From assembly GCA_964612665.1 (NCBI GenBank), contig CAZTCI010000003.1:969-64968 (forward strand): DNA of 64,000 nt. Reading direction: 5' to 3'. Positions 1 to 37,447 of this stretch are shown piece after piece. The notes beneath the pieces were generated by a model. The model worked only from the letters and a program-made list of their open reading frames with translations, was not told the origin of the DNA and did no database searches. Origin of the DNA: an uncultured Planctomycetales bacterium. GTDB taxonomy: Bacteria; Omnitrophota; Gorgyraeia; Zapsychrales; JAHFFX01. Numbering within the stretch: position 1 is the first letter of the stretch; the number at the start of each line of letters is the position of its first letter. The position numbers and the translations under genes were made by a program.

Positions 1-3000
1 CCCATGTCGTTCCAATTCACGCCGGCATCGCTCATCACGTCGACATCTGACCAGTTGATTCCTGTATTGGACAAATCATTCAAGCTCGACCAATTAATCC
101 CAATCATACTCATTGCGTTTAAATCAGACCAATTCACACCAATACTACTCATGATATTCAAATCAGACCAATTGACACCGGCATCGCTCATGATATCGAT
201 ATCTATCCAGTTAATGCCAGCATCCGTCAAGATATCAAGATCCGACCAATTAACACCAGAATCGGAGAGAATATCCAGATCCGACCAATTCACGCCGACA
301 TTACTCAAGATATTAATGTCCGACCAATTAATTCCCGACGTTGTCATCTCATTAATATTACTCCAGTTGACACCAATAGTTGAAAGCACAGTAATGTCAT
401 TCCAGTTGACACCAGCATCACTTAAGATATCAATATCAAGCCAATTAACACCGGCGTCGCTCATAATATCGATATCCAGCCAGTTGATACCAGCGTCAGA
501 TAAAGTATCTAGATCAGTCCAATTGACACCAGCGTTGCTTAGAATATTGATGTCACCCCAGTTAATTCCAGCGTCGCTCAAAATATCAAGATCAGCCCAA
601 TTGACACCAGTCGTACTTAAGACATTGATATCTGTCCAATTAATTCCCGACGAGGTAAGCGCGCCTAAATCTTCCCAGTTGACACCCGATTGATTTAAAA
701 CGCTTAAATCGATCCAGTTAATACCGGAGCTGGTTAGATCATTTAAGTTAGACCAATTCACGCCGTTGTTGGTTAAAACCGACAGATCATTCCAATTAAC
801 ACCAGAATCACTCAAAATATCCAGATCCGCCCAATTCACTCCGGCAGTACTTAAAACCGTAATGTCATTCCAGTTGATGCCGGCATCACTCAAAATATCT
901 AAATCCGACCAGTTGATGCCAGCGTCGGAAAGAATGTCCATATCGATCCAATTGATTCCAGCATCGCTTAGGACATCGATATCAGCCCAGTTCACACCAG
1001 CATCACTTAAAATATCCAGATCAGCCCAGTTCACACCGGTGGTACTTAAAACACCTACATCAGTCCAATTGATTCCTGTCGTCGTTAAAGCGCCAAGATC
1101 ATTCCAGTTGATGCCGGTCGCGCTTAAAACACTAACATCGTTCCAATTAATTCCGCTGGTTGTCATTTCATTTAGATTCGACCAATTAACACCGCTCGTG
1201 CTAATCACATCGAGATCGTTCCAATTGACGCCAGTGTCGCTTAAAATATCCAGATCCGCCCAATTCACGCCGGCGTCACTTAAGATGTCGATATCAAGCC
1301 AATTAATGCCAGCGTCGGACAAAACATCCAAGTCCGCCCAATTCACACCGGCGTTACTTAAAATATTAACGTCATTCCAATTAATGCCAGCGTCACTCAA
1401 AACATCAATGTCCGCCCAATTCACGCCGGCGTTAGTCAAGGTATTAATATCAGACCAGTTAATTCCGGCATCACTCATGATATCCAAATCAGCCCAGTTG
1501 ACGCCGGCCGCCGTGAAGACACTAAGATCACTCCAATTGACACCCGTTGTCGACAACGACCCTAAATCATTCCAGTTGACACCAACGTTAGTTAAAATAT
1601 TAATGTCCGACCAGTTAATCCCGGAAGTGGTCATATCATTAATGTTCGTCCAATTCACACCACTTGTTGTCAGCACCGTGATATCATTCCAATTCAATCC
1701 AGCGTCGGAAAGAATATCCAGATCCGCCCAGTTGACGCCCGCGTCGCTTAAGATATCAATATCAAGCCAGTTGATTCCTGCATCTGACAACACATCCATA
1801 TCCGCCCAGTTGACGCCGGCGTCGCTTAAGATATCGAGATCAGCCCAGTTAATTCCGGCATCACTTAAAATATCAAGGTCAGCCCAGTTCACACCGGTTG
1901 TGCTTAAAACTGTTAAATCACTCCAGTTGATGCCCGCGTCACTCAAAACATCGAGATCCGCCCAGTTGAGTCCGGCCGTCGATAAAACACCGACATCATT
2001 CCAATTGATTCCCGTCGTCGATAAAGCGGCGAAATCATTCCAATTAACACCCGCATCACTTAAGATATCAACATCCGACCAATTAATGCCGACGGTTGAA
2101 AGCTCACTGATATTGTTCCAATTAATTCCGGTGGTTGAAATGACGCCTATATCAGACCAATTCAAACCCGTATCACTCATGATATCCAAATCCGACCAGT
2201 TAATGCCGGCGTCACTCAAAATATCCAAGTCCGTCCAATTAATGCCGGCATCACTTAAAATATCAAGATCCGCCCAATTCACACCCGTCTGACTTAAAAC
2301 ATCAATATCCGACCAATTAAGACCTGCGTTTGAAAGCGAGGCTAAGTCACTCCAATTCGTTCCGATATTACTTAAGACATTCATATCCGACCAATTAATT
2401 CCTGTCGTCGTTAAAACAGTCAAATCAATCCAATTCACTCCTGCGTCGGATAAAATATCGATATCCAACCAATTGATGCCGGCACCAGACATGTCATTTA
2501 AATTCGCCCAGTTGACACCGCTATCGCTCATCACGTCGATATCGGTCCAGTTGATCCCTGCGTCTGAGAGAACGTCAATATCCAGCCAGTTGATGCCGGC
2601 ATCGCTTAAGATATCCAAATCAGCCCAATTAATTCCGGTTGTGCTGATCACACCAAAATCATTCCAGTTAATTCCCGTGTTGCTTAAAACATTAAGATCT
2701 GACCAGTTTAAGCCACCGGTTGTCATGTCACTGATACTTGTCCAGTTAACACCGGTCGTGCTTAACACCGTCAGATCATTCCAATTTAATCCGGCGTCAC
2801 TCATCGCATCCAAATCCGCCCAATTCACGCCCGCGTTACTTAAAACATTAACATCCAGCCAATTAATCCCCACATCGCTTAAAATATCCAGATCCGCCCA
2901 ATTCACACCCGCATCACTTAAAATATCAATATCCACCCAGTTGATTCCAGCGTCTGAAAGAATATCTAAATCTGACCAATTAATTCCGGCATCGCTTAGG

Positions 3001-6000
3001 ATGTCCAAGTCCGCCCAATTCACACCGGTATTTGTTAAAACAGTCAAGTCATTCCAATTAATTCCAGCGTTGCTTAAAATCGTCATGTCATACCAGTTAA
3101 TTCCCGTTGTCGTTAAAGTTCCAATATCACTCCAATTAATACCCGTGACACTTAAGGCGCTCAAATCATTCCAATTCACTCCAGCATCACTTAAGATATC
3201 AACGTCAGCCCAGTTTAGACCTGCTGTCGTCATTTCATTAATGTTGCTCCAATTGACACCGATATTTGATAAAACACCTAAATCACTCCAGTTGATTCCA
3301 GTTGTGCTAAGAGAAGACCAATCAGCCCAGTTGATTCCGGCATCGCTTAAAATATCCAGGTCACTCCAGTTGATTCCAGCGTCGGAAATAATATCCAGAT
3401 CCGTCCAATTGATCCCGGCATCACTTAAGATATCCAGATCAGCCCAATTAATTCCAGCATCGCTTAGAATGTCCAAGTCCGCCCAATTCACACCGGCGTC
3501 ACTTAAAATATCGACATCCGACCAATTAATTCCCGCCGTTGATAACGCCCCGAAATCATTCCAATTAACACCCGAAGCACTTAAAACGCCGACATCTGTC
3601 CAGTTGATTCCGGATGTGCTCATCTCATCGATGTTCGACCAATTAACGCCCGTCGCTGATAAAACCGTTAAATCATTCCAGTTGACGCCGGTCGTACTCA
3701 AAACCGTCAAATCAGACCAATTGACACCCGCATCGCTTAAAATATCAAGATCAGCCCAATTAATGCCAGCGTCAGAAAGAATATCTAAATCCGCCCAGTT
3801 GACACCCGTATTACTTAAGACATTAATATCATTCCAATTGATACCAGCGTCAGAAAGAATATCTAAATCCGCCCAGTTCACGCCCGCATCACTTAAGATA
3901 TCGATATCAACCCAGTTGATTCCCGCGTCAGACAAAATATCCAAATCAGACCAATTCACGCCAGCGCTGCTCATTACATTAATATCTGACCAATTCAGTC
4001 CAACGGTGCTAAATACCGTTAGGTCCGCCCAGTTCACACCTGAATCACTTAATATATCAACATCCGCCCAATTGATGCCGGCAACGGTCATTTCGTTGAT
4101 GTTCGTCCAGTTAACGCCGACATTGGACATGACGGTCAAATCACTCCAATTAATACTGGAACTGCTCAACACCGTCAGATCCGTCCAATTTACACCTGCA
4201 TCACTTAAAATATCCATATCCAACCAATTAATACCAGCGTCGGAAAGGATATCCAAGTCCGCCCAATTCACACCTGCATCACTCAAAATATCCAAGTCCG
4301 CCCAGTTAATGCCGGCATCGCTTAAAACATCCATGTCCGCCCAATTCACACCTGCGTCACTCAATACATCGAGATCTGACCAATTGATTCCAGAAGTTGA
4401 CAAAGCACCGATATCAGCCCAATTAACACCCGTTGCGCTAATGACATCAATATCCATCCAGTTGATTCCGGATGTTGTCAAATCATTAAGACTTGACCAA
4501 TTGACGCCCGTCGTAGTTAGCACCGATAAATCATTCCAGTTAACACCGGTGTCGCTCATCACATCAATGTCGAGCCAGTTCACGCCCGCGTCACTCAAGA
4601 TATCAATATCAGCCCAATTAATTCCCGCATCAGAAAGAATATCCAAGTCTGCCCAATTCACGCCTGCGTTACTTAAAACAGTGAAATCATTCCAATTAAT
4701 TCCGGCATCACTTAAGATATCGAGATCCACCCAGTTGACACCAGCATTGCTTAGCGTATTAATATCGGCCCAATTAACTCCGGCATCAGAAAGAATATCC
4801 AAGTCCGCCCAATTCACGCCCGCATCACTTAAAATATCCATGTCCGTCCAGTTAATGCCAGCGGTCGTTAAAGCGCCAACATCGGCCCAGTTAACGCCGC
4901 TTGTTGCGATAACATTAATGTCGGTCCAGTTAATTCCTGTCGTCGATAAAGCACCAATATCGCTCCAGTTCACACCCGCATCACTTAAAATATCTAAGTC
5001 AGCCCAATTGATTCCAGCGTCGGATAAAACATCGAGATCCGCCCAATTCACGCCTGCATTACTTAAGACATTCATGTCCGTCCAGTTAATCCCGGCATCC
5101 GAAAGGATATCTAAATCAGCCCAATTGACGCCTGCGTCACTTAAAACGTCGATATCAAGCCAATTAATTCCAGCATCGCTTAAAATATCTAAATCGCTCC
5201 AATTAATTCCAGCATCGCTTAAAATATCCAAATCACTCCAATTGACACCAGACGTTGTCAAAGCGCCGACATCATTCCAATTAATACCAGCATCGCTGAG
5301 GATATCAACGTCTGACCAATTGATGCCTGAAGCTGTCATATCATTGATATTTGTCCAGTTGACACCAATTGTTGACATCACATTCATGTCTGACCAGTTG
5401 ATCCCCGCCGTGGTTAGTGTATCCACATCCAACCAATTAACGCCTGCGTCAGTCATGATATCTAGATCCGCCCAATTGATTCCCGCCGTTCCCAACGTAT
5501 TAAAATCAGTCCAATTAATTCCCGCATCACTTAAAGTGTCCAAGTCCGTCCAGTTAATGCCATCAGTACTGAGAATGTCGACATCCGTCCAGTTGATCCC
5601 ACTTAAAGTCATCACGGCCATATCATTCCAGTTAAGTCCGGCAACCGACATAACCGTTAAGTCACCCCAGTTGACACCCGCGTTAGAAAGTGTGGCCAAA
5701 TCATCCCAATTAATAGTTGAATCCCAGTTGACACCCGCCCCACTCATATAGGCAATGTCATACCAATTAACACCAGCGGTACTTAAAAATTGCAAATTGT
5801 CCCAGTTAATGTTGGCATCGCTTAAAATATCGAGATCACTCCAGTTGACGCCTGCATCACTCAAAATATCAAGGTCTGCCCAATTGACACCCGCGTCGCT
5901 TAAGATATCAACATCGGCCCAATTAACACCGGCATCACTCATCACATCAATATCCAGCCAATTTATTCCCGACGTCGATAAACTAAAAAGATCTGTCCAG

Positions 6001-7121
6001 TTAATGCCAGCATCGCTCAAAATATCAATGTCATACCAATTAATTCCGGCCTTACTAACGGATTCGATATCATCCCAATTAACATTAGCCATACTATCCG
6101 TGACATTTTTAATACTGGACACATTGGATTTTAAAACATCAACATCTGCCCAGTTGATTGTGTCAGTCGCGGCTTTGATGTCGCTGATGTTTAACCAATT
6201 GATCGTATCGGTTGAAGATTTAATGTCAGTGACGTTGGTCCAATTAATAGTATCGGTTTTACCGCGGATTGTGGCGAGTTGAGCATCTTGAAGAGAATAC
6301 GTAACAGTTCCCGTAAAGGTAAGCGTGTTATAGGTGATCGTGACAACACCAATGTAGGATTCATTACGGCTGGAAGGAATCCAACCATTATTACTCTTAA
6401 ACCAATCAGCGGAGGCATCGACAGTGAGCGATAAGGCGCTACAGTTTCCGCCGCAACCCGTGTCTAACGTCGTCCCATTAGATTTATAAATGGCCACGGT
6501 ACAAGTTTCAGTCCCACCCAAATCAACAATGCGGCCATCCGCTTCAAGCCAAGCCACTAAATCAATTTCATCACCGCTGGCCCCATAGGTCACCTTTGAC
6601 TGAACAGTTAAAGGAACAATTCTGAAACTGTTTGAAGTCCCTGTATACGTTACTGAACTGATGGTCGTTGAAGCCTTCAGAGTGTAAAGCAATCCGGGCT
6701 TGTTAATCTTTAGTCCCTTGCCAGAAAAGTCCGCCACCCCACTCGTCATAGTCATACTAGTTGTACCACCGAGCGTACTGCTTCCACCAGAATCGTTACT
6801 AATGGAAAGCGTAACCGTGGCGCTGCTATTATTAACAGTGTTGCCGTTAATGTCTTTTAAAGTAAGGACAGGTTGGGGACTAAAAACAGTATTGGGATAA
6901 GCGTCGGGAACAGTTCCGGTAAAACTTAAATAGGAAGGATCTCCAGCCCCTGCTTGGCCGGATGAAGAACTGGCAGAGGAAGAACCATCGTATCCCCCGC
7001 CAGTGTATTGGGCATAAACTGAGGAAAAGAAAGAACCGCTCAAGAGGAGTACTAATATAAGAGTACACTCTACCCCTCTGCGGACAAAATTCGCTCTACG
7101 TTCCGTTATGTTTTCGGTCAT
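1..7121 (-). CDS. giant secreted repeat protein, partial (C-terminus beyond window start). It has a signal peptide and a ~270-aa Thr/Ser/Gly-rich N-terminal domain, then at least 160 tandem 13-aa repeats (I/V)NWxD(L/V)DILSDAG.
   Basis: Manual minus-strand translation, codon low coordinate = 0 mod 3. ATG at 7119-7121 follows an in-frame TAA at 7143-7145. N-terminus reads MTENITERRANFVRRGVECTLILVLLLSGSFFSSVYA-Q, a classic signal peptide. I translated about 1.7 kb (7121 down to ~5400) with no stop. The plus-strand frame stays in one phase across 4..6282 with only three stops, so there are no indels and the minus frame is preserved throughout. Neighbouring genes are all minus-strand. The ORF track omits it because it lacks an in-window stop. 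Confidence 0.8.
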   Translation of the reverse strand, partial: MTENITERRANFVRRGVECTLILVLLLSGSFFSSVYAQYTGGGYDGSSSASSSSGQAGAGDPSYLSFTGTVPDAYPNTVFSPQPVLTLKDINGNTVNNSSATVTLSISNDSGGSSTLGGTTSMTMTSGVADFSGKGLKINKPGLLYTLKASTTISSVTYTGTSNSFRIVPLTVQSKVTYGASGDEIDLVAWLEADGRIVDLGGTETCTVAIYKSNGTTLDTGCGGNCSALSLTVDASADWFKSNNGWIPSSRNESYIGVVTITYNTLTFTGTVTYSLQDAQLATIRGKTDTINWTNVTDIKSSTDTINWLNISDIKAATDTINWADVDVLKSNVSSIKNVTDSMANVNWDDIESVSKAGINWYDIDILSDAGINWTDLFSLSTSGINWLDIDVMSDAGVNWADVDILSDAGVNWADLDILSDAGVNWSDLDILSDANINWDNLQFLSTAGVNWYDIAYMSGAGVNWDSTINWDDLATLSNAGVNWGDLTVMSVAGLNWNDMAVMTLSGINWTDVDILSTDGINWTDLDTLSDAGINWTDFNTLGTAGINWADLDIMTDAGVNWLDVDTLTTAGINWSDMNVMSTIGVNWTNINDMTASGINWSDVDILSDAGINWNDVGALTTSGVNWSDLDILSDAGINWSDLDILSDAGINWLDIDVLSDAGVNWADLDILSDAGINWTDMNVLSNAGVNWADLDVLSDAGINWADLDILSDAGVNWSDIGALSTTGINWTDINVIATSGVNWADVGALTTAGINWTDMDILSDAGVNWADLDILSDAGVNWADINTLSNAGVNWVDLDILSDAGINWNDFTVLSNAGVNWADLDILSDAGINWADIDILSDAGVNWLDIDVMSDTGVNWNDLSVLTTTGVNWSSLNDLTTSGINWMDIDVISATGVNWADIGALSTSGINWSDLDVLSDAGVNWADMDVLSDAGINWADLDILSDAGVNWADLDILSDAGINWLDMDILSDAGVNWTDLTVLSSSSINWSDLTVMSNVGVNWTNINEMTVAGINWADVDILSDSGVNWADLTVFSTVGLNWSDINVMSSAGVNWSDLDILSDAGINWVDIDILSDAGVNWADLDILSDAGINWNDINVLSNTGVNWADLDILSDAGINWADLDILSDAGVNWSDLTVLSTTGVNWNDLTVLSATGVNWSNIDEMSTSGINWTDVGVLSASGVNWNDFGALSTAGINWSDVDILSDAGVNWADLDILSDAGINWADLDILSDAGINWTDLDIISDAGINWSDLDILSDAGINWADWSSLSTTGINWSDLGVLSNIGVNWSNINEMTTAGLNWADVDILSDAGVNWNDLSALSVTGINWSDIGTLTTTGINWYDMTILSNAGINWNDLTVLTNTGVNWADLDILSDAGINWSDLDILSDAGINWVDIDILSDAGVNWADLDILSDVGINWLDVNVLSNAGVNWADLDAMSDAGLNWNDLTVLSTTGVNWTSISDMTTGGLNWSDLNVLSNTGINWNDFGVISTTGINWADLDILSDAGINWLDIDVLSDAGINWTDIDVMSDSGVNWANLNDMSGAGINWLDIDILSDAGVNWIDLTVLTTTGINWSDMNVLSNIGTNWSDLASLSNAGLNWSDIDVLSQTGVNWADLDILSDAGINWTDLDILSDAGINWSDLDIMSDTGLNWSDIGVISTTGINWNNISELSTVGINWSDVDILSDAGVNWNDFAALSTTGINWNDVGVLSTAGLNWADLDVLSDAGINWSDLTVLSTTGVNWADLDILSDAGINWADLDILSDAGVNWADMDVLSDAGINWLDIDILSDAGVNWADLDILSDAGLNWNDITVLTTSGVNWTNINDMTTSGINWSDINILTNVGVNWNDLGSLSTTGVNWSDLSVFTAAGVNWADLDIMSDAGINWSDINTLTNAGVNWADIDVLSDAGINWNDVNILSNAGVNWADLDVLSDAGINWLDIDILSDAGVNWADLDILSDTGVNWNDLDVISTSGVNWSNLNEMTTSGINWNDVSVLSATGINWNDLGALTTTGINWTDVGVLSTTGVNWADLDILSDAGVNWADIDVLSDAGINWIDMDILSDAGINWSDLDILSDAGINWNDITVLSTAGVNWADLDILSDSGVNWNDLSVLTNNGVNWSNLNDLTSSGINWIDLSVLNQSGVNWEDLGALTSSGINWTDINVLSTTGVNWADLDILSDAGINWGDINILSNAGVNWTDLDTLSDAGINWLDIDIMSDAGVNWLDIDILSDAGVNWNDITVLSTIGVNWSNINEMTTSGINWSDINILSNVGVNWSDLDILSDSGVNWSDLDILTDAGINWIDIDIMSDAGVNWSDLNIMSSIGVNWSDLNAMSMIGINWSSLNDLSNTGINWSDVDVMSDAGVNWNDM

Positions 7122-7241
7122 TCCAGGGATCAACTGGACTGGTTATTTTTTGAAGATATTCTGACTGCCTGATGAGTGACAGATGCCACAGAATCTTCAA
7201 AAACTCAAAAATAATTTATAAAAACGCCTAAAAATCTACCG

Positions 7242-8840
7242 CTATGAACCGTCGTAAGTCCTAACACCGCGGCCGCCATAATTATTAGCTCTTGCCGTAT
7301 CCGTATTAGCGGCCTTGCTGCGATCAGAAATTCTTAAAGCTGTATTTGCAGAATCCCAGGCCCCGCCTTTTTCACCGGCGCCAGTCGCGCCCGTAACACC
7401 ATGAGACGCTGTACCATCGCCCGAGACCCAACCTGAGGTATTAGCATTACCTTCATAAGAGGCCACGACATCCACGGTTCCATCCCCATGCCCGCCGGTG
7501 TACGCAATTCCCGTCGAGTTACCAATCGTAACCACCCGTTCCCACAAATCGCCTGACATTTGCATAACTCCATAATAACTGGCCCCGGCCGCTTCCCTGG
7601 TGCTGCTGGCTGTTGCAAAAATGCCCGCGCGTAACGGTCCGAAAACATATTCACTTCCTAAAAAGTCATCGCCGCGGCTAAACGTTGTCGAATTATAATT
7701 GGCATTGGCACTGTTTGTTAAAACCGTTTCTAATCCCAACTCGGCGCTTCCTGAAATTGTTACGGCCGCCGTAAGATTAGTGCTCCCCCACGCATACTCA
7801 CCGGAGACCGCGCTCAAAGGACCACGGCAAATTTTTTCATACTCAAGTTCTGTCATAGGTCGAAGTCCGACCCAATCTAAATACGCCGATAAATCCATCC
7901 AACTGATATAACTTACCGGCCGGTCACTGCGAGATGTACTCGCGACACCAGCAGCTTGAGAAATACTATTGCGCTTGACAACGCTGTCGGAATTTTTGCC
8001 ACCGTTTGTGTTACTCGTAATATCGCGGTTCGTTTGAGCACTGCTGCCGATATTATTAATGAAGTCAACCCACTGACCTTCAGTAATCGGATATTTCATA
8101 CAATAAAAAGCGGCATAACCTTTAGGGAAAGCCGCAGGGATTGTAAATTCCGCACCCGTCGAGGATTCACCAGCATTACTTCCGGAAACATAATAATATC
8201 CATCCGAAACCAATTGATTCACATTGATAGCACCTTCACTTGATATATACCAGGGATCTGTGTCGCCGGATCCTTGTTTAAGACTTCCTGTCGAAGAAGT
8301 ATCACCCGCGTAAAATGGTGACGTGGGAATATAAACCATTTCTATGCCAATCACTTTAACCGAGATGGTGTCCGTGTCAGCAGCGCCAGCAGCTGCATAA
8401 TCAAGCTTCAGACGAACGTTATGCGTTGAGACTGTCCCCGAGCCCGTTGATTTCCGTCGAATAAAAGCCCCAACTTTGTCGGAAGGAACATAAATTTCTA
8501 AATCGTTACTGGCGCTGGTTCCAGGAGAAGTTCCAGCGGGATCAGTTCCAGCATTTTTCATGTTTCCATGGACAGGCGTGCCGCTGTTGATTGTAACTTT
8601 TAATACAACCCAAACAGCGTCATGATTGGTAGGAGTTCGCCAGGAATTATCCCAGCTCAAATCAAATTGAACAATCGCTGTATCTGCCGAAGAATCGCGA
8701 TCCTGCAAAGAGACATTCGAAATGACCAAATTATTTGCCCTCGCCGGTAAAACAACTACTGTCAAAAAAGCGTTAAACACGAAAAATAAAATGCCGAATA
8801 ATTTTTTGTTTTTTGTTTCGCGCATGCCAAACCATTTCAA
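7242..8840 (-). CDS. secreted FGE-sulfatase/SUMF1/EgtB-family domain protein (GldJ-like fold)
   Basis: N-terminal signal peptide. Motifs match the formylglycine-generating-enzyme domain: YCMKYPITEGQWVDFIN, RPVSYISWMDLSAYLDWVGLRPMTELEYEKICRG, SGDLWERV, and the C-terminal GGAW...RISDRS...GGRGVR. Confidence 0.65.
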   Translation of the reverse strand: MKWFGMRETKNKKLFGILFFVFNAFLTVVVLPARANNLVISNVSLQDRDSSADTAIVQFDLSWDNSWRTPTNHDAVWVVLKVTINSGTPVHGNMKNAGTDPAGTSPGTSASNDLEIYVPSDKVGAFIRRKSTGSGTVSTHNVRLKLDYAAAGAADTDTISVKVIGIEMVYIPTSPFYAGDTSSTGSLKQGSGDTDPWYISSEGAINVNQLVSDGYYYVSGSNAGESSTGAEFTIPAAFPKGYAAFYCMKYPITEGQWVDFINNIGSSAQTNRDITSNTNGGKNSDSVVKRNSISQAAGVASTSRSDRPVSYISWMDLSAYLDWVGLRPMTELEYEKICRGPLSAVSGEYAWGSTNLTAAVTISGSAELGLETVLTNSANANYNSTTFSRGDDFLGSEYVFGPLRAGIFATASSTREAAGASYYGVMQMSGDLWERVVTIGNSTGIAYTGGHGDGTVDVVASYEGNANTSGWVSGDGTASHGVTGATGAGEKGGAWDSANTALRISDRSKAANTDTARANNYGGRGVRTYDGS

Positions 8841-8887: not shown

Positions 8888-9871
8888 TTAATAATCGTAT
8901 TTCGCGTTCTTCAACTGCTCTTTATCCTCAGCCTTGTCCAAAGGAGAGTCAATGCTGGATTTTAATTCCATTCTGGCTTTGTTAATTTTATCTTTTACAA
9001 AAGCGGCATCGTCGGCACTGGGATTCAAATATAAATACTGCTGATAATGTTTGAGCGCTGTTTTTTGATCACTTAAATATTCACCGCTGACAAAAGCGAG
9101 ATTATAGTGACTGGCAGCATCGAAGGGCATAATCTCAACGGCTTGCGAATATTCCCATGCGGCCTTTTGATAATCGCCTTGCTGGAAAAAAACATTCCCC
9201 ATGTTGTAATGAACTTTCGCGGAATCTTTTTTCAGACGATCATTTTCATTATTTAACTCTGAAACTTTAGAAACAACGCCTTGAACTTCTTCAGGATTAT
9301 TGACATCGATTGTGGTGGCTGCTTCCGCCGGGGCTTTCATCGCTTCCATTTCTTTGTGCCATTTCTCTTCCAAAGTTAATTGCTCTTCCAATTTCTTATA
9401 TTTTGCCTGCCATTCAGCATCTTTTTGGTCTACGGCTGCTTGAAGTTTTTTGATTTGCGCGTCTTGATCATCTTTAGTTCTGGCGATATCTTCCAGTTTT
9501 CGACCCAAGTCTTCTTTTTCGGATAAGGCCGTTGTTAGACGGTTCGCGTCGACCGCTTTCTGACCGTTTAACTGCTTTAAGTCAGAAGCCATTTTTTGAT
9601 TTTCCTTCATCAGCTGTTCATTTTCTTCAACAGCATTCTTCAGACTTTGATTAATTCTGATGATTTGCTGTTCTTTAAAAGAGACATCCAATCCTCCCGA
9701 CATGCCTTCATCCATAACGGCCTGGTCGAGATCAACCTGGTTTTGGACCGCCCCTTGAGATGTCTCAGCGGCATGACCTAAGCCGGCGGCGAAAAACAAG
9801 CCGCAAAACCCTAACCATCCCAGAATTGGGACGATTGGCATTTTTGAATATCGTGAGGATTTTTTAAACAT
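8888..9871 (-). CDS. secreted coiled-coil / TPR-repeat protein
   Basis: Signal peptide. Central heptad-rich, Q/K/E-rich segment. C-terminal TPR-like repeats (GNVFFQQGDYQKAAWEYSQAVEI..., YNLAFV..., ALKHYQQYLYLNP). Confidence 0.6.
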   Translation of the reverse strand: MFKKSSRYSKMPIVPILGWLGFCGLFFAAGLGHAAETSQGAVQNQVDLDQAVMDEGMSGGLDVSFKEQQIIRINQSLKNAVEENEQLMKENQKMASDLKQLNGQKAVDANRLTTALSEKEDLGRKLEDIARTKDDQDAQIKKLQAAVDQKDAEWQAKYKKLEEQLTLEEKWHKEMEAMKAPAEAATTIDVNNPEEVQGVVSKVSELNNENDRLKKDSAKVHYNMGNVFFQQGDYQKAAWEYSQAVEIMPFDAASHYNLAFVSGEYLSDQKTALKHYQQYLYLNPSADDAAFVKDKINKARMELKSSIDSPLDKAEDKEQLKNAKYDY

Positions 9872-9942: not shown

Positions 9943-11565
9943 TTATTTTGGTTCAACACTCGCTTCTTTATAATCTTTAAAAGGTTTAACTGATCCCTTT
10001 AGTGAATTGTAATCATCTTTAGACGTGACGACATGCGGTGTTATAAAAATAACAATTTCCGTGCTGGCAATATTATCACTCACACGGCTGAAAAATTTTC
10101 CAACCCAAGGCACATCCATAAGGTAAGGCAGACCTTTTTTGGTATGAACCTTATCATCTTTCTTAAGACCACCCATAATAATAGTCATGCCGTCTTTGAC
10201 CATGACGGTTGTTTCAACTTCAGTTTTATTTGTTTGTGGAATGCCGCCGCCTTTGGATTGGATTTTATCTACGACCGTAGAGATCTCTGGTTTTAAGCGC
10301 ATAATAACCACACCATCATCATTAATAATAGGCGTAACGGCCAGCTTCAACCCAACATCAACGAAACGCACATCTTCACTAGTAATAGCATTGTCACCCG
10401 TACCTGAGGTTGTTGAGATAATATAAGGAATCGTGTCACCAATATGAATCCTTGCTTCCTCATTATTAGTGACCATGATTTGAGGATTGGAAAGAATTTT
10501 TGTATCGCTTACCTGCTTCAAAGCCCGAGCCGCCACCGAAAAGTGATCAGCATTGACTTGACCGATACCAATTTTACCAAAAGCATTACCTAAATTATCC
10601 GACGTTGATAACTTTGGATTATTCAAATAAAGATTTTGAAAACTAATTTTGCGCAGCTGCGGGTCAGGACTATCCTTAAAATCCAAATTCCAATCAATCC
10701 CTAAATCAAAAGTCGGCTTAAAAGTCACTTGTAAAATGCGGGCCTCAATCATCACTTCTTTCGTCGGAGCATCAAAACCCTTGATCATCGTTTTAATTTC
10801 TTCCAGACGACTAGGCAAAGCGCGCACAATCAACTGATTACTGCGTTCATCGGCCATAATAGAGCCAACCCCGCTCGCATCGATGCGCGAACGCAATTTT
10901 TCACCAACGACCTCAGCCTTGGCATATTCCATAGTAAATATATAGGTATTCAAAGGTGTTTCCAAAGTTTTCAAGGCATCCTGCATCTTGGCCAAAGCTT
11001 CCGGCGTATCAATTAAAACAAGCGAGCCGGTATCTTCATCAATAATAATCTTGCCAATAGAACTCTTAATATTATCCAGAGCCGCCAAAATGTTGGCTGG
11101 CTTCGCATAATTCAACTGCAAAATCCTGACTTCAGTTTTATCGCCAAAGATGCGGCCATAGGTTGCTTCGTATTCACTAGCATTCATCACCTGCACAATG
11201 TCACCGGGCAAAATTTTATAAGCTAAATGATTCGAAATGACCGCAATGTCTAAAGCATCTTTGATAGCGACACTTTTCAAAAGCAGGGTAACGCGCCCTT
11301 CCACCTTGCTGCTGGTGACCACGTTAAATTCACCTTTGGTCGCAAGAAACTTAATCACATCGACAATATTCATGTCCCTGATATCCAGTGTAATCTTGCG
11401 CTGCAGACGCTTATCCAAAGGTTCCTGCGGTTCGTTAATCTCGATATATTTGGCTTCATCGACAGGGGCTTCGGCTTTTACTCTCGTCGGGGGCGGCCCC
11501 AAAAGAATAAACAAACCAATCATGAACAAAAATACCCTGCGGGTTTTATTTTTGATCGATTTCAT
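9943..11565 (-). CDS. secretin (PilQ/GspD family outer-membrane channel)
   Basis: N-terminal signal. N0/N1-like domains. Secretin core motifs: LSNPQIMVTNNEEARIHIGDTIPY, VDVGLKLAVTPIINDDGVVIMRLKPEIS, GGLKKD...KGLPYLMDVPWVGKFF...TEIVIFITPHVV. Confidence 0.8.
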   Translation of the reverse strand: MKSIKNKTRRVFLFMIGLFILLGPPPTRVKAEAPVDEAKYIEINEPQEPLDKRLQRKITLDIRDMNIVDVIKFLATKGEFNVVTSSKVEGRVTLLLKSVAIKDALDIAVISNHLAYKILPGDIVQVMNASEYEATYGRIFGDKTEVRILQLNYAKPANILAALDNIKSSIGKIIIDEDTGSLVLIDTPEALAKMQDALKTLETPLNTYIFTMEYAKAEVVGEKLRSRIDASGVGSIMADERSNQLIVRALPSRLEEIKTMIKGFDAPTKEVMIEARILQVTFKPTFDLGIDWNLDFKDSPDPQLRKISFQNLYLNNPKLSTSDNLGNAFGKIGIGQVNADHFSVAARALKQVSDTKILSNPQIMVTNNEEARIHIGDTIPYIISTTSGTGDNAITSEDVRFVDVGLKLAVTPIINDDGVVIMRLKPEISTVVDKIQSKGGGIPQTNKTEVETTVMVKDGMTIIMGGLKKDDKVHTKKGLPYLMDVPWVGKFFSRVSDNIASTEIVIFITPHVVTSKDDYNSLKGSVKPFKDYKEASVEPK

Positions 11566-12247
11566 ATTTTATGGTGATCTCCTCATCTTGGTTCGTTAAA
11601 ACCGCTCGATCCGTATAAATAGTTTGGACGGTCCAATTTTTTATCTTTTCGCCTTGATGCGCAAAGTAAGTAATATTACTTTCTTTATCCTCAACCATGA
11701 CAGCCGCCGATTCCGGCGTACTTAACCAGGAAATGCCGACTAATTTTAAATTTTGAGCGGGATTATTAACTTTTTGCGAAACCGCTGGGACGATGCCCTG
11801 CTCATTGATCTTGCGTTCAAACGGCTGAAAAATATTGCGGGCATCAATCAAACTCAAATAATACGACAGCTGTCTCACCGGAGGAACAAGGTTTGCATTC
11901 ACTTTACCGCGTGGTCCTGATTCAATATCTAATTCGGTGCCGTGGTTGACTAAATTGAAACCATTAAAAAATTCAACCAAAAAAATGAGAACAACGGCAG
12001 CCACCGCCAAGATCAGTAATTGGTTGAGTTCTTTAAGTCCAAACTTAAATGAAGGATTAGTTGATGAGGAGACTTGCTCAGAAAAAACTGATTGCAGAAA
12101 AGAAGGCATGTTTGGCGTCACGCTTTTACCGCGGACTGCTTCCGCCATTTGACGGGCGACATCAGATTGAGAAGCATCTTTAGGGTCGCCGCTGGCTGCG
12201 GACGCGGGGAGTATTTTTTTGGAATCTTCTGCGCTCTCTGGGGCCAT
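11546..12247 (-). CDS. PilP/GspC-like secretin-associated membrane protein
   Basis: Single TM helix (LLILAVAAVVLIFLVEFF). C-terminal beta-domain resembles the PilP homology region (LKLVGISWLST..AAVMVEDKESNITYFAHQGEKIKNWTVQTIYTDRAVL). Lies immediately upstream of the secretin with overlapping ends. Confidence 0.45.
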   Translation of the reverse strand: MAPESAEDSKKILPASAASGDPKDASQSDVARQMAEAVRGKSVTPNMPSFLQSVFSEQVSSSTNPSFKFGLKELNQLLILAVAAVVLIFLVEFFNGFNLVNHGTELDIESGPRGKVNANLVPPVRQLSYYLSLIDARNIFQPFERKINEQGIVPAVSQKVNNPAQNLKLVGISWLSTPESAAVMVEDKESNITYFAHQGEKIKNWTVQTIYTDRAVLTNQDEEITIKYEIDQK

Positions 12248-17661: not shown

Positions 17662-18225
17662 TTAACGGGCATACGATTCTAGCTCCGGAAGCTCATTAGC
17701 GGTAATTACACCATCATGATTGCGGTCAAATTCGTAAGTAATATCAGAATGAACCGGATAACTTCCCGACGACCTAACAACACTAGCCACGTGAGTCAAA
17801 AAAGTTTTAATTTCGCTTGAATCCAGCTTCCGGTCGCCATTCGCATCAAACCCTTCTTCTTCTTTATTATGCAGTGGCAACGCGCCGCCGGTACGCAAAG
17901 CTTTATGGACCTGACTTTCGACGGGCGCTTGAGTTGCCGCGGGCTGCGTTTTTACAGGTTCGGGAGGAGGTGCTTGAACTGAATCTTTTTTATCAGGCGC
18001 AGGCGCTTCAAGGGCCGGGGTGTTATTATCAATATTTTTCGACGGAGATTCAGATGGTTCTTGGCTTGTGGTAGCATTTGTTTCTTCAGTAGTCGTATTG
18101 GCCACAGATTCTGAAGAAGTGGAAGATGTTGAGACAACGGGTTCATTTAAATCAGCAAAACACAGATGAGCATAAATCCCGCCCATCACAGCAATGATAA
18201 AACCATTTAAAATAATTTTTTTCAT
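17662..18225 (-). CDS. secreted EF-hand calcium-binding protein
   Basis: Signal peptide. Two EF-hand loops (DANGDRKLDSSE, DRNHDGVITANE). Acidic and P/T-rich linker. Confidence 0.6.
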   Translation of the reverse strand: MKKIILNGFIIAVMGGIYAHLCFADLNEPVVSTSSTSSESVANTTTEETNATTSQEPSESPSKNIDNNTPALEAPAPDKKDSVQAPPPEPVKTQPAATQAPVESQVHKALRTGGALPLHNKEEEGFDANGDRKLDSSEIKTFLTHVASVVRSSGSYPVHSDITYEFDRNHDGVITANELPELESYAR

Positions 18226-24250: not shown

Positions 24251-25486
24251 TTAAAAATATTCTTGATAGATTTCTTTAAGTTTGTTCGAAACATCGGCAA
24301 GCCAATGCGTGGTGGGTTGAGTTGGAACAGAATAAGGGATAATTTTGGTTAGTCCTAATTGGGCGAGACCAATTGAACCAGAAAATAACGCCGCGTTATT
24401 TAACCGTGTAGTTACGAGCTGATTTTTGCCCATAATAACCGTCAGTGAAACACTTTTTTCAATACGTTCCAAAAGACCTGGCAAAAGCGAACCACCGCCG
24501 ACAATTGTAACACCGCCGGTCAGTTGAGTATAAAATGGTCCTTTGATAGCGTTTTCAATTCTAGCGACGAGTTTACTGATCTCAGGTTCGATCGCTTCAT
24601 AAATAACTTCTCGCTTGATAGGCAGATAACCAGAATCTTTTTTAACTAAAATTTCTTCGTCTTTCTCTCCTTCGACATCGATCGCCGCACCATAAGAACG
24701 CTTAATATCCTCGGCCAAATCAAAAGGTAAATTAAGATGCTGCGCAATGCTGCGCGTGATGTGATGCCCGCCTAAAGGAATTTTCTCATGAAAACGCAAA
24801 AGCGCGTCTTTAAAAATCAAAATATGCGTCACGTCACAGCCAATGTCGATGAGTGCGCATCCGTCGATTTTCATAGCATCGGTCAATGTGGCGGTGGCAG
24901 CGGCAAAAGTTGAAAACAAAGTTTGCGAGACCTCAAAGCCTGCCTGATTAACCGCTTTAATAATTGGGTTAAGGACCATCGTGTTGGCGAGCAGTAAAAG
25001 CAGATCAGCCTCCAATTTTCGGCCATAGGTGCCTGTAGGATTTAAAGTGATATTGGCTTCATCGACTTTGTAATGCTGCGGAATGTCGTGCAGGATTTCT
25101 TCGTCGGGTTTAATCCCTAAAGAAGCGGCTTGTTGATTGACGGCTTTTAGATCATGCGGTGTAATCACCTTATTGCCGCGCTCCAACAACGGAATAATAG
25201 CGTTAGTGCGGCGGCTTTCAATAAGATCTCCGCCAATCCCTAACTGGACTTCCTTAATTTTAAAACCTGTGTTCTGCACCAGTCCATTGATCGCAACCGC
25301 AACGGATTCGGCGACATCCCCGGCGTCATTGACACTTGTATTTTTAAAACCTTTAAGCGGCGTTTCAAAAACGCCCAAGAGTTCAAGCTCATCATTTTTT
25401 TTAACCCGAAGCAAACTTGTTTTAATTTTCTGCGACCCAAAGTCCAGCCCGCAAAAAATCTTCTCCCCTATCATCCTCCTCAACAT
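24251..25486 (-). CDS. ftsA: cell division protein FtsA
   Basis: Actin-like ATPase (GLDFGS... phosphate loops), 411 aa. The true start may be MIGEK at 25474. Confidence 0.85.
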   Translation of the reverse strand: MLRRMIGEKIFCGLDFGSQKIKTSLLRVKKNDELELLGVFETPLKGFKNTSVNDAGDVAESVAVAINGLVQNTGFKIKEVQLGIGGDLIESRRTNAIIPLLERGNKVITPHDLKAVNQQAASLGIKPDEEILHDIPQHYKVDEANITLNPTGTYGRKLEADLLLLLANTMVLNPIIKAVNQAGFEVSQTLFSTFAAATATLTDAMKIDGCALIDIGCDVTHILIFKDALLRFHEKIPLGGHHITRSIAQHLNLPFDLAEDIKRSYGAAIDVEGEKDEEILVKKDSGYLPIKREVIYEAIEPEISKLVARIENAIKGPFYTQLTGGVTIVGGGSLLPGLLERIEKSVSLTVIMGKNQLVTTRLNNAALFSGSIGLAQLGLTKIIPYSVPTQPTTHWLADVSNKLKEIYQEYF

Positions 25487-25513
25487 ACCTTACGCCCCAT
25501 CTATTGCAATGCC

Positions 25514-26278
25514 TTAGCTATTTTGTTTTTTACTAATGATTGGTTCTTTAAATCGAAGATCCAGATAACTCACTTCATCCATTTTCAATTTCGCCTGCGC
25601 CAGCATAAAACTAAGCATGCGCATCTGTTCATCGATATTACTTTGATCCACAATCACACGGAAACTATCAGTCATATAAAATTCAATCTGAGAAAGATTC
25701 GTAATATCCATTTTAATAATACGGTAAGGCGCCAGATATTTATTGGCTTCAAAATTTTTAATGATCTTTAATGCAATTTGGACATCCTGGCTCTTAACCG
25801 ACGAGCCCAAAGCGAACGGCAAATTGTCCGCCAATCCGCCAACGATAGGCAGTGGCTCTTTAACGTTAATGGGTGTAAATGAAATCGCAACCCCATCGCT
25901 GTCGACAACAACATCTTTGCTTTTGGTTCTTAATTCCGCCAAAGGCTGGCGCCGGCGGGCCAGGACAAAAATCTGGTCTGGAAAGCGCCGCACGAGACGG
26001 ATTTGAGAAATCTCTGGATATTGTTCTTGCAGATATTGCTCAAAGGCCTTGAGATTGACGGTAAAAATACTTTTACCCTTAAGCATATTCAAACGCGATG
26101 AACGCATAAAACTGATCGCTGGGTCGTATGAAATTTCTTTGATTTTAAAGCGGGGCGAATTTCGAATGCCTTGCGCAATTCCCAAACATATCAGCCAGAC
26201 TAAACAAAAAACCAAACAGCCGACTAAAATATCCCGCGCGATTGAAAAGACCGCTGAATTTTTATTCTTTTTGCCCAT
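25514..26278 (-). CDS. ftsQ: cell division protein FtsQ/DivIB
   Basis: N-terminal TM, POTRA and beta domains. Sits between ddl and ftsA. Confidence 0.8.
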   Translation of the reverse strand: MGKKNKNSAVFSIARDILVGCLVFCLVWLICLGIAQGIRNSPRFKIKEISYDPAISFMRSSRLNMLKGKSIFTVNLKAFEQYLQEQYPEISQIRLVRRFPDQIFVLARRRQPLAELRTKSKDVVVDSDGVAISFTPINVKEPLPIVGGLADNLPFALGSSVKSQDVQIALKIIKNFEANKYLAPYRIIKMDITNLSQIEFYMTDSFRVIVDQSNIDEQMRMLSFMLAQAKLKMDEVSYLDLRFKEPIISKKQNS

Positions 26279-27263
26279 AAGCTAACCGGATCATTTGTAA
26301 ACATAATTGCGTAAAATCAATGCCGACGGCCTGAGCGGCTTTCGGCAAAAGACTGGTTGCAGTAAAACCTGGAATGGTGTTTACTTCAAGAACATATGGT
26401 TTGGTTTCATCTTCAAGCATCATATCAATCCGCGAAAAATGCCGGCATCCCAGCGCTTGGTGGGCTTGAAGACCAATTGTCTGCATGTTTTGGGCGACCG
26501 CCGCCGCGATTTGCGCCGGCACAATATATTTGGTCATGCCCAACGTGTATTTAGCACTAAAATCAAAAACTTGGTTCTTGGGAACAACTTCAACGATCGG
26601 CAAGGCCTTTCCATCAAAAATCCCGACCGTAAACTCTCTTCCCTTAATATACCGCTCAATCAAAACTTCTTTACCATAACGAAAAGCATTCTGCAGAGCA
26701 AGCGCTAAATTCTCTTTTTCAAACACAACCGTGACGCCGATACTCGATCCTTCGCAAGCCGGCTTAACAACCACAGGCAATTTAAGTTTTTCTAAAATCT
26801 GATTAGGGCCAATCTCATCAGTATTGCGCAGAATAAGATTCTCGGCGATAGGAATTCCCTTTTGTTTTAAAATCGCCTGGGTTGTAATTTTATTAATCGC
26901 AAGCTGGCTCGCTTTAACGCCTGAACCGGAATAAGGGATCGACAGATTTTCTAAAATAGTTTGGATTGTCCCGTCCTCGCCTAAACATCCATGCAATGCG
27001 ATAAAAGCGACATCGATCTTTGCTTCTTTGATTAAATTAGCAATCTCATTTTCTCGTCGGCACGTAATATCAATGGGATGAACATCACAGCCGGCTTCTT
27101 TCAAAGCTTTGATAATCGCGTTGCCTGACTTAAGTGAAATTTCTCTTTCGGAAGAATATCCACCCATCAAAACGCCGATGCGGCCGAGCTGAGCGGCTGA
27201 GATTTTCTTCTTTCCGACGGAGATTGTTGTTACCTTCTCTTCTAATTTCGATGTCTGGGGCAT
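26262..27263 (-). CDS. ddl: D-alanine--D-alanine ligase
   Basis: ATP-grasp Ddl motifs (GEDGTIQ, EVNTIPG). Confidence 0.9.
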   Translation of the reverse strand: MPQTSKLEEKVTTISVGKKKISAAQLGRIGVLMGGYSSEREISLKSGNAIIKALKEAGCDVHPIDITCRRENEIANLIKEAKIDVAFIALHGCLGEDGTIQTILENLSIPYSGSGVKASQLAINKITTQAILKQKGIPIAENLILRNTDEIGPNQILEKLKLPVVVKPACEGSSIGVTVVFEKENLALALQNAFRYGKEVLIERYIKGREFTVGIFDGKALPIVEVVPKNQVFDFSAKYTLGMTKYIVPAQIAAAVAQNMQTIGLQAHQALGCRHFSRIDMMLEDETKPYVLEVNTIPGFTATSLLPKAAQAVGIDFTQLCLQMIRLAYGQKE

Positions 27264-27270
27264 GGTTGTT

Positions 27271-27418
27271 TAGAATTTATCTAGAAGTCATCTCATAAAT
27301 GGTATTGAGCGGGCAACGGGTGGCACGGCGAGCCGATTGGGGGAGGATCCACGCCGGGCGGAGGGGCCACAAGCGGTTTGCCGTGACAGGACCCGCTGCT
27401 TCGACTATTTATAAGATA
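27271..27418 (+). repeat. GC-rich structured MITE-like element, copy 1 (~148 nt)
   Basis: ~90% identical to 58217..58364. Short terminal inverted repeats (CTAGAA..TTCTAG; ATAAAT..ATTTAT). Internal long-range pairing GCGGG..GCACGGC / GCCGTG..CCCGC. ~65% GC against a ~43% GC background. Confidence 0.7.
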
Positions 27419-27434
27419 TATTCTACCTTTCCGT

Positions 27435-31946: not shown

Positions 31947-31981
31947 ATCTTAAATTTTAGAATTAAGAGTGTTATTAAAAT

Positions 31982-32087
31982 CTTATTAAACGCGAATTTT
32001 CACGAATTACACACGAATCTCGCGAATACTCCTAAGTTGATTCGCGGCCATTCGTGTGTAATTCGCGTTAATTCGCGTTTAATAAGG
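31982..32087. repeat. REP-like palindromic element, 'acacacgaat' family, copy A
   Basis: Nested inverted repeats (ttattaaacgcgaatt...aattcgcgtttaataag; cacgaattacacacgaat / attcgtgtgtaattcg) in the ftsW-murD intergenic region. Confidence 0.7.
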
Positions 32088-32112
32088 TTTTCAAACTCTT
32101 TTCAAATCCTTT

Positions 32113-34457: not shown

Positions 34458-34520
34458 GTCTTCCTCGTTTAGAAAATTCTACAATTCATTTCAAATGCTA
34501 TTCGGCGAAAGCGGGTGACG

Positions 34521-34561: not shown

Positions 34562-34569
34562 GCGTTATT

Positions 34570-35967: not shown

Positions 35968-35969
35968 AA

Positions 35970-37445: not shown

Positions 37446-37447
37446 TT

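Follow-up and report, generated by a model that had tools for sequence, protein, structure and literature searches.

The 64,000-nucleotide (nt) stretch of DNA analysed here, referred to as the window, is taken from contig CAZTCI010000003.1 of an uncultured bacterium (assembly GCA_964612665.1), which is deposited under a Planctomycetales label and placed by GTDB in the Omnitrophota. These are widespread, uncultivated and ultra-small bacteria that are thought to live on other cells. At the left edge of the window lies a giant minus-strand gene, called the NW gene in the following, whose 3' end is cut off and whose product consists largely of 13-residue tandem repeats built around an Asn-Trp (NW) pair. 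It is almost certain that this gene is real and encodes a protein of the exported type, and very likely that it belongs to a family of repeat proteins of Omnitrophota origin. With moderate confidence, the product is regarded as a fibrous surface or adhesin-like protein in which the repeat array forms a stalk of variable length. Genes of this kind matter for annotation, as much of the largest coding capacity of the Omnitrophota is labelled 'hypothetical' or lost where assemblies break in repeats.

Coding strand and architecture of the giant gene

Direct translation of 7145..1 on the minus strand yields 2,373 stop-free codons from the Met codon at 7119-7121 to base 1, preceded by an in-frame stop at 7143-7145. 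The initial annotation had proposed one giant, 3'-truncated tandem-repeat gene in this frame. This proposal is borne out by the translation, which recovered the upstream stop and found no stop up to the window edge, including the part 1..5400, as well as by the codon-position pattern and the homologues described below. It had also been observed that the program-made list of open reading frames (ORFs) misses the gene. This is correct, since the list omits ORFs running off the end of the source, and no minus-strand ORF over 1-7121 is contained in it. The features of the gene, with residues given as amino acids (aa), are the following:

1..7121, minus strand: coding sequence of the NW-repeat giant; 5' end complete (ATG 7119-7121), 3' end cut by the window edge
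7011..7121, minus strand: putative signal peptide, aa 1-37, MTENITERRANFVRRGVECTLILVLLLSGSFFSSVYA followed by Q, read from the sequence
6915..7010, minus strand: QYTGG motif and Ser/Gly-rich linker, aa 38-69, from alignment A3
6270..6914, minus strand: two predicted tandem immunoglobulin (Ig)-like beta-sandwich domains, about aa 70-170 and 171-284, by homology to P0008
6087..6269, minus strand: transition, aa 285-345, with three 15-residue TDTINW units (aa 289-335) and a 25-residue link, conserved in homologues
3..6086, minus strand: NW array of about 156 tandem 13-mers, aa 346-2373, from motif spacing and TRF
5706..5753, minus strand: irregular element AYMSGAGVNWDSTINW, aa 457-472, the sole break in the 13-residue register, conserved in the family
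4..6282, plus strand: four antisense shadow ORFs, not genes; the entropy pattern fits the minus frame and the products are of low complexity

The four long plus-strand ORFs (4-693, 766-2292, 2473-5751 and 5755-6282) were all recovered and share a single phase with just three interruptions. On these grounds, it could be argued that they are the real genes, or that the region is non-coding satellite DNA whose open minus frame is a mere by-product of the repeat. However, the variation in the array is concentrated at the third positions of the minus frame, with a mean entropy of 0.96, 0.55 and 1.45 bits for codon positions 1, 2 and 3 over 146 in-register 39-nt units. Because third codon positions vary most, purifying selection on the minus frame is indicated. 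Diverged DNA furthermore encodes identical minus-frame peptides, as the 13 units coding for GVNWADLDILSDA occur in 13 distinct nucleotide versions with a mean identity of 79%. The minus frame also holds the signal peptide and non-repetitive Ig-like domains with homologues. Its N-terminus aligns with the homologue P0008 at 34% identity over 350 columns (BLASTP, E = 7e-41), and the minus-frame family comprises more than 100 members with conserved non-repeat ends. The plus-strand products, in contrast, show a low-complexity QLxPASLKISKSAQ pattern and gave no family match in the family libraries. Selection acts on the minus-frame protein, and the chance that the plus strand or a satellite accounts for the region is considered negligible. 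The earlier view of the plus-strand ORFs as antisense artifacts is thus confirmed by codon-position entropy, synonymous divergence and the homologous minus-frame proteins.

Another possible explanation concerns the length of the array in the window, which could be an assembly artefact caused by a collapsed, expanded or chimeric repeat. The contig end falls inside the array in 39 of the 44 family loci fetched by the C-terminal motif, many database members carry the label 'partial', and the organism's 6.4-kb Logan short-read contig ends in the formylglycine-generating enzyme (FGE)-like gene, before the giant gene is reached. However, the longest exact DNA repeat within the array measures 35 nt and the best pair of five-unit (195-nt) windows is at most 81% identical, so that ordinary reads place the units uniquely. 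These values also indicate that the array is old at the DNA level, and a mis-assembly of its visible part is unlikely because the DNA is so diverged. From aa 468 to the window edge, moreover, the frame is kept across 146 units without a single indel, and the proteins neighbouring the gene in the window sit on a 401-kb NCBI contig. An artefact is therefore judged very improbable.

The N-terminus shows the parts of a signal peptide: its n-region is basic, the hydrophobic core spans 17 residues and the cleavage motif is V-Y-A. Its junction, SSVYA/QYTGG (aa 33-42, with the slash marking the cleavage site), is an instance of the A-x-A/Q-Y-(T/S)-G-G junction that is conserved in 19 family N-termini (alignment A3). 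No further hydrophobic segment follows in the visible 2,373 residues. In the AlphaFold model of P0008, the equivalent of the linker is disordered, with a predicted local distance difference test (pLDDT) score below 50, and the Ig-like pair is modelled at pLDDT 86-98. Foldseek matched this pair to Ig tandems of titin and filamin and to Sap S-layer domains, and sequence searches also recovered Big/invasin-type Ig arrays. By homology to the confidently modelled P0008, two Ig-like domains are predicted in the window protein. The layout given in the initial annotation, a signal peptide followed by a beta-rich region of about 270 residues, three TDTINW units and the 13-mer array, agrees with the family alignment and with the P0008 model.

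As a side observation, the second Ig-like domain (6288-6611, minus strand, aa 171-278) bears a GCGGNC loop. Similar loops are found in P0061 and P0123 (GCSGSC, GCGGTC) and not in P0008, and loops of this type may be small disulfide loops inserted in some lineages.

Within the repeat region, 160 NW motifs were found, and 155 of the 159 spacings between them are exactly 13 residues. The exceptions are the three 15-residue TDTINW units, the 25-residue transition and a 6-residue half-unit at aa 462-468. Instead of the more than 160 13-mers counted initially, the array holds about 156 canonical ones, the figure of 160 applying to NW motifs in all. The reported 39-bp period was found again by TRF, along with its 78-, 117- and 156-nt multiples. 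The consensus of the unit reads G (152 of 159), I/V, N (159), W (159), x, D (142), L/I, D/N, I/V, L/M, S/T, D/T and A. The irregular element, with the pattern AYM(S/T)GxGVNWxxxINW, is also present in P0005, P0006, P0008, P0009, P0061, P0123 and P0124. Residues I and V alternate at unit position 2 (87 alternations against 39 repeats, p = 1.6e-5), which points to a super-period of 26 residues. A NINEMT-type marker unit returns at intervals of 10-13 units, and the autocorrelation has peaks at lags of 10, 12 and 22 units. Asp makes up 15.2% of the array, Lys occurs once, and Arg, His, Cys and Pro are absent, giving a net charge of -315. Phase variation through repeat slippage was considered and rejected, as the array has no long identical DNA repeats (maximum 35 nt).

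Members and extent of the NW family

Searching with the repeat block returned 56 proteins and searching with the family profile 78. Out of 1.84 billion cluster representatives, 395 matched the profile at E ≤ 1e-3 and 143 at E ≤ 1e-10, and the NW repeat is therefore rare. Nearly all named members are annotated as 'hypothetical protein, partial' and stem from metagenome-assembled genomes of Candidatus Omnitrophota, with a few filed under the generic bin labels 'uncultured Planctomycetales' or 'Elusimicrobia'. One member, HQO58463.1, is labelled 'carboxypeptidase-like regulatory domain-containing protein, partial'. The complete members are:

P0005: 900 aa
P0008 (HY209_05345): 868 aa
P0061: 1,292 aa, with a LamG domain
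P0123: 2,809 aa

In complete members, the signal peptide and QY(T/S)GG junction are followed by the two Ig-like domains and the TDTINW units. Next come the NW array with its irregular element, a region in which (T/S)(L/V/I)FG motifs are repeated, a helical domain and the terminal motif DVVVK(T/S)W(F/Y)ES.E. The window protein has the QYTGG junction, the Ig-like pair, the TDTINW 15-mers, the NW array and the irregular element of this series. It shares them, as well as the upstream genes for a secretin and a tetratricopeptide repeat (TPR) protein, with its Omnitrophota relatives, such as P0008, P0061, P0123, HQO58463.1 and the metagenome locus L004. It differs from most of them in that they carry K/R at unit positions 12-13, whereas the window array is nearly free of basic residues. 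The C-terminal helices of the P0008 model reach a pLDDT of about 80, with the last 12 residues disordered, and a profile of the C-terminal domain matched only coiled-coil regions, e.g. the DC-SIGNR neck. Judging from its homologues, the last 200-250 residues or so of the window protein would form a helical, coiled-coil-like domain that closes with the terminal motif.

The N-terminal heads of the family vary. P0061 carries an additional LamG domain, and P0123 and P0124 have more than 1,000 additional residues, including a Rha78A-like Ig domain. Since the repeat is shared by several architectures, it looks like a mobile module, and its position under different heads fits the role of a stalk or spacer. 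Two further sets of proteins with NW/INW repeats of 13-14 residues were noticed in addition. In P0027, P0028, P0032 and P0036, the repeat occurs under Glug/M26_N-type N-terminal modules and together with different C-terminal domains. The second set is formed by proteins of 350-700 aa ending in GG(V/L)IYAE or a similar sequence (P0026, P0038, P0040, P0043-P0045, P0048, P0049 and P0053).

To determine the extent of the arrays, an alignment of six C-terminal-domain sequences was used to fetch 44 loci carrying the C-terminal motif, of which metagenomes supplied 22 and the genomes of GTDB species the other 22; a 15-sequence alignment was too divergent for this purpose. In 43 of the 44, the ORF ending in the motif meets no stop before the available DNA runs out on its 5' side. 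Only L014, a contig of 1,464 bp, departs from this: its ORF is interrupted by an in-frame stop 145 codons upstream and contains no repeats. Six loci with a full 10-kb flank show ORFs of at least 3,392-3,412 residues with 227-244 units, the longest arrays among the 44 having at least 3,409 aa and 244 units. Short complete members have about 23-50 units, and the family spans about 23 to about 1,250 units, a roughly 50-fold range. With at least 2,373 residues and about 156 or more units, the window protein lies in the middle of it.

The longest member seen is L004 (JGI 3300020219, contig Ga0163146_10000109, 10001-21749), in which an N-terminal ORF of 582 aa is followed, with a 4-nt overlap, by an ORF of 16,204 aa whose first 3,334 residues consist entirely of NW units. 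Changing the length of a GGGG run at the junction by one base is enough to restore the perfect repeat ...ALAVGGVNWQDMMVLSKSG..., so that L004 reads as one gene of about 16.8 thousand aa (kaa), whose frameshift is either real or due to a sequencing error. The family thus reaches about 16.8 kaa. The L004 array also shows a higher-order repeat of six units (78 residues).

The signal-peptide junction, the Ig-like pair, the 13-residue NW unit and the DVVVKxWxE tail together define the family, which no domain library covers. They can serve as a practical marker for annotating genes that are now seen as fragments, antisense ORFs or mislabelled 'partial' proteins.

Giant proteins as such are known from the phylum. 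Archaeovorins and dockerin-type Omnitrophota giants have many transmembrane helices and SecA-DEAD and HEAT domains, or dockerin/TSP3 repeats (West-Roberts et al. 2023, preprint). The NW protein resembles the giants of that preprint and of a 2026 catalogue (10.64898/2026.06.07.730766) in phylum, gene length, nearby secretion or pilus genes and proposed cell-cell contact. However, SecA-DEAD, HEAT, dockerin, TSP3 and multiple membrane helices are missing from its visible 2,373 residues, and membership in the Archaeovorin or dockerin-type group was rejected for lack of these defining domains. In the catalogue, 137 of 916 long proteins are left uncharacterised as 'Pfam dark matter' and 79 'signal peptide only' proteins are counted separately (10.64898/2026.06.07.730766). 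The NW family would fall into the 'signal peptide only' class and the 'Pfam dark matter' fraction. The NW repeat is mentioned neither in these two preprints nor in the main text of Seymour et al. 2023 (PMC10066038).

Fold of the repeat and candidate role of the protein

The repeat could not be assigned to a known family, in agreement with the initial annotation, which had placed it in no nameable one. Searches of the N-terminus and the repeat block, as suggested there, gave only sub-threshold or spurious matches in Pfam and NCBIfam, and a PDB sequence search with the repeats gave none. The ALTTAQ repeat (PF20080) scored 20.7 bits against a gathering cut-off of 26.4, and no stretch passed this cut-off by itself. 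Matches to LipP1, Dmc1 and other library models were dismissed, as they lie far below their cut-offs. In the window protein, no Pfam match to RTX, dockerin or TSP3 was found, and literature searches for a 13-residue bacterial surface repeat brought up nothing relevant. The loose resemblance to DUF285/BspA-type repeats that had been suggested found no support. A surface-protein context and a short motif containing Asn and Trp are indeed common to both, but the leucine-rich repeats (LRRs) of the DUF285/BspA type have a period of about 23-25 residues instead of 13, and neither DUF285 nor LRR models gave a Pfam match at E up to 1. Matches of homologues to Ntox33 and Lysostaphin_N were likewise rejected as artefacts of composition or of the 13-residue period. 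The sub-threshold Lysostaphin_N matches lie on the arrays of P0007, P0011 and P0123. Since the Lysostaphin_N model is itself built from 13-residue tandem repeats, they most likely reflect shared periodicity and not homology.

For the fold of the unit, a helical model was derived from AlphaFold, and the chance that it is correct is put at about even. In both a run on 24 window units with the family alignment and a run on full-length P0008, nearly every unit was modelled, at low confidence, with a helix of nine residues and a turn of four. An i+3 hydrophobic stripe runs along positions 4, 7, 10 and 13, which hold W, L, L and A. Helices can be capped by a hydrophobic staple and capping box at their start and by a Schellman-type Gly stop. 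The invariant residues of the unit (G, I/V, N, W, D and L) fit such a pattern, with (I/V)-N-W-x-D-L as staple and capping box and L-S-x-x-G-(I/V) as Gly stop. Alternatively, the array may form a beta-solenoid in which each coil takes 26 residues, with an Asn ladder and an aromatic stack. Thr and Val are abundant in many units, which counts against a helix. Fourier analysis fails to separate the two folds, as its peak for the hydrophobicity of the unit falls between the periods of alpha and beta structure.

Short structural repeats are known from an LRR variant with 24-residue pairs of alpha and 3-10 helices, from the beta-solenoids of beetle antifreeze proteins with 12-13 residues and from the 14-residue beta-roll of the YadA head. 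The NW array resembles these in its repeat length (about 12-14 residues, or 24-26 per pair), its own super-period being 26. It differs in having no Pfam or PDB sequence match and a model without structural analogue (Foldseek, no PDB match below E = 0.1) and, compared with the disulfide-braced 12-mers, in lacking Cys. If the NW unit proved to be a new solenoid fold, few structural repeats known to form stalks would be as short.

The extracytoplasmic character of the protein is indicated by the signal peptide, the Ig-like domains, the GCGGNC loop and, in relatives, the LamG and Rha78A-like Ig modules. Secretion of the giant protein can be inferred from the signal peptide and from domains of the extracytoplasmic type. 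In the mechanism proposed here, Sec would export the giant chain. The conserved C-terminal helical domain would be the cell-proximal end, held at the envelope via a partner protein, via oligomerisation or both, and the repeat array would serve as a long, thin stalk, longer or shorter according to the number of units. The variable Ig-like or lectin head would be the distal end that contacts other cells or surfaces, and the adjacent PilQ-like secretin module would be the most likely outer-membrane route or assembly site. As an order-of-magnitude estimate, 156 units of stacked short helices at about 0.5-1 nm each would give a fibre of around 100 nm, which is akin to the size of ultra-small cells.

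Fibrillar adhesins have a head-stalk-anchor layout, in which the stalk consists of folded domains of about 70-110 residues (Ig-like, Big) or of beta-rolls, and known adhesin anchors are LPXTG, the type 1 secretion retention module and autotransporter barrels. The NW family shares with them a variable N-terminal head of the binding type, a long repeat stalk varying in number and a conserved end that is a possible anchor, and the roughly 156 tandem units of the window protein fit the long repeat stalk of this class. It differs in its stalk unit of 13 residues and in its anchor candidate, a helical domain with the DVVVKxWxE tail and a separate membrane partner, which is unlike the known anchors. 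RTX adhesins, on the other hand, consist of GGxGxDxUx nonapeptides, have no N-terminal signal peptide and are encoded near an operon for the ATP-binding cassette transporter and membrane fusion protein of type 1 secretion. An RTX or type 1 secretion adhesin was rejected, as there is no RTX-type Pfam match, an N-terminal signal peptide is present and the neighbours are secretin, TPR and FGE-like genes.

Several points weigh against the fibrous-protein reading and the fold assumed in it. The signal peptide was assigned by eye on the basis of rules, the C-terminus of the protein lies outside the window, and the head of the window protein consists of Ig-like domains alone. The AlphaFold run on 24 window units reached a pLDDT of 57 and a predicted template modelling score (pTM) of 0.26, and the repeats of full-length P0008 a pLDDT of 45-60. 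In most family arrays, the hydrophobicity of the unit has its main period at 2.6 residues, and unit position 8 is dominated by D/N/G/S/T, which are unfavourable in the middle of a helix. Passage through the secretin is a guess from adjacency alone, and the partner and further downstream genes invoked below likewise lie outside the window. Finally, charge is not a conserved property, since relatives are K/R-rich where the window array is polyanionic, and the net charge of -315 may be lineage-specific and outside the mechanism.

The acidity bears in two ways on a rival explanation, according to which the protein is an envelope matrix, a coat, an S-layer-like or a periplasm-spanning structural protein, in this lineage a polyanionic, cation-binding layer located close to the secretin, either at the outer membrane or beneath it. 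Such a layer would suit the extreme acidity of the window array, but not the basic residues in the arrays of relatives. The head of the window protein, with generic Ig-like domains alone, and the S-layer Sap domains among the Foldseek matches of the pair are compatible with it. A Sec signal by itself ensures no more than arrival in the periplasm, and the partner is anchored in a membrane by its C-terminal helix. However, relatives bear lectin-type LamG heads and extra N-terminal modules typical of outward-facing proteins, and the 50-fold range of unit numbers suits a stalk better than a lattice or a periplasm of fixed width. A structural role in the envelope is therefore regarded as possible but unlikely, and a fibrous surface protein is preferred.

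A much more specific version of the stalk can also be formulated. The NW 13-mer would be a new fold building a new appendage, a single-polypeptide fibre of hundreds of nm to about 1 micrometre, which the partner anchors in the inner membrane and which passes through a dedicated PilQ-like secretin and carries a head of the lectin or Ig-like type. Such a fibre would supply the ATPase/type-4a-pilus locus with its missing contact element, serving the capture of host cells or movement on them. This combination is rather unlikely to hold.

The surrounding locus

Four genes lie directly upstream of the NW gene. The initial annotation had placed all neighbours on the minus strand, and this applies to all ORFs of at least 120 aa with family matches. 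The nearest are:

7242..8729, minus strand: exported protein with a partial FGE-sulfatase-like domain (Pfam PF03781, E = 1.2e-14, profile positions 35-147 of 255)
8888..9871, minus strand: TPR protein with weak resemblance to secretin-assembly lipoproteins of the PilW/Tgl type; beside the secretin in L002, L003 and L004
9943..11565, minus strand: secretin of the PilQ/GspD family (Pfam Secretin, E = 1.5e-48)
11546..12247, minus strand: GspC/PilP-like protein, weak match (PF11356, E = 8e-4; NCBIfam GspC_delta, E = 1.4e-3)

In NCBIfam, the secretin scored 261 bits for PilQ, against a cut-off of 284, and 237 bits for GspD. The gene in L003 that is syntenic with the GspC/PilP-like one matches T2SSC, and the order GspC-like gene, secretin, TPR gene upstream of the giant gene is found in the window as well as in L002, L003 and L004.

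For the FGE-like gene, the longest ORF reaches 8840, and the start was placed at 8729 in accordance with the gene called on the Logan contig. Its product has a signal peptide of its own, an N-terminal beta-rich region and weak PDB matches to EgtB and FGE. FGE-like genes fill the same slot in L002 and beside P0005, and the slot holds two FGE-like genes or three small unknown genes in relatives. Since the content of the slot differs in this way, the FGE-like gene is a variable accessory of the locus, and its product is possibly structural rather than catalytic. A catalytic formylglycine-generating role acting on the repeats was rejected, because Cys is absent from the array and only part of the FGE domain is matched.

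On the other side of the giant gene, the conditions in relatives are highly uniform. In 44 of 45 family loci, a partner gene with a product of about 440 aa abuts or overlaps the 3' end of the giant gene, and the two are probably translationally coupled. In the partner protein (alignment A8), the signal peptide is followed by about 380 residues, beta-rich at first and helical later, and the C-terminal end is made of a membrane helix with a short charged tail. The protein gave no family match in Pfam or NCBIfam. Examples of the partner gene are located at:

L002: 12610-13917
L003: 13888-15255
L006: 10231-11610
L018: 10173-11507

An F-type ATPase gene lies at most 2.5 kb past the partner in 42 of 42 loci and is followed by a second large subunit and a PilB-like ATPase, and in L002 PilC-like and pilin-like genes were then seen. 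Because the loci were picked by the C-terminal motif of the giant protein alone, this association is not a selection artefact. By synteny, the partner, the F-type ATPase operon and PilB/PilC are expected downstream of the window gene. A 60-mer from window positions 1-60, at the cut end of the gene, was absent from the genome and metagenome contig collections searched.

As to the operon itself (L002 13933-19336, with equivalents in 42 loci), its genes run in the atypical order alpha, epsilon, c, a small unknown gene, b/delta-like, gamma and beta. No a subunit was recognisable among the called genes.

Giant surface proteins acting together with an F1-like ATPase are known from the gliding of Mycoplasma mobile, where they are represented by Gli349 and Gli521. 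By analogy, the NW protein could be a motor-driven leg or tether for attachment or gliding, which runs through the secretin, is held at the inner membrane by the partner and is coupled to the F-type ATPase, to the PilB pilus machinery or to both. The resemblance lies in a giant surface protein encoded beside an F-type ATPase, and the idea gains from the invariant order of secretin, TPR protein, NW giant, partner, F-type ATPase and PilB/PilC across 42-45 loci, from the partner gene overlapping or abutting the giant gene and from the atypical order of the ATPase genes. However, the envelope is here diderm and contains a secretin, and the ATPase does not pass the gliding models. The large subunits in L002 exceed the NCBIfam cut-offs for atpA (506 vs 484 bits) and atpD (527 vs 463 bits) and remain far below those for the gliding ATPases MMOB1660 and MMOB1670 (396 vs 600 and 412 vs 850 bits). 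A c subunit is present, so the complex may just be the ordinary ATP synthase of the cell, and gene order in small genomes can be historical. The analogy is therefore given little weight and a motor function considered improbable.

The locus itself has been flagged before. The main text of Seymour et al. 2023 (PMC10066038) describes a divergent F-type ATPase beside type-4a pilus genes in every Omnitrophota class, termed a 'symbiotic' locus, compares this ATPase with the gliding ATPases of Mycoplasma and places it near the Mycoplasma type-2/3 clade. The giant gene of the family lies between secretin/TPR and ATPase-PilB-PilC of this locus wherever both sides are readable; the window itself shows the secretin side alone. 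That main text does not, however, use the word 'repeat' or include a repeat protein and its partner as a fixed member, and giant ORFs are treated apart (PMC10066038). Across the family, the giant gene is thus a fixed member of a phylum-wide symbiosis-signature locus, together with a coupled membrane partner. Giant proteins of the Omnitrophota and adhesins of the stalk type are known, whereas the 13-residue unit, the arrangement of tail and partner and the fixed place in the flagged locus are, as far as these sources go, undescribed.

The rest of the window is core chromosome with glycine cleavage genes, a lipoate ligase, LigA, two tRNAs and a cell-division and cell-wall cluster, nearly all on the minus strand. 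This cluster (24251-39121, minus strand) looks complete and comprises FtsA, a MurC-like protein, FtsW, MurD, a MurF-like protein and a penicillin-binding transpeptidase, which indicates the core chromosome of a peptidoglycan-making bacterium. Between the genes for an S41 peptidase/PDZ protein and the lipoate ligase, a 187-aa ORF (17662-18225, minus strand) shows a short EF-hand-type match near its C-terminus.

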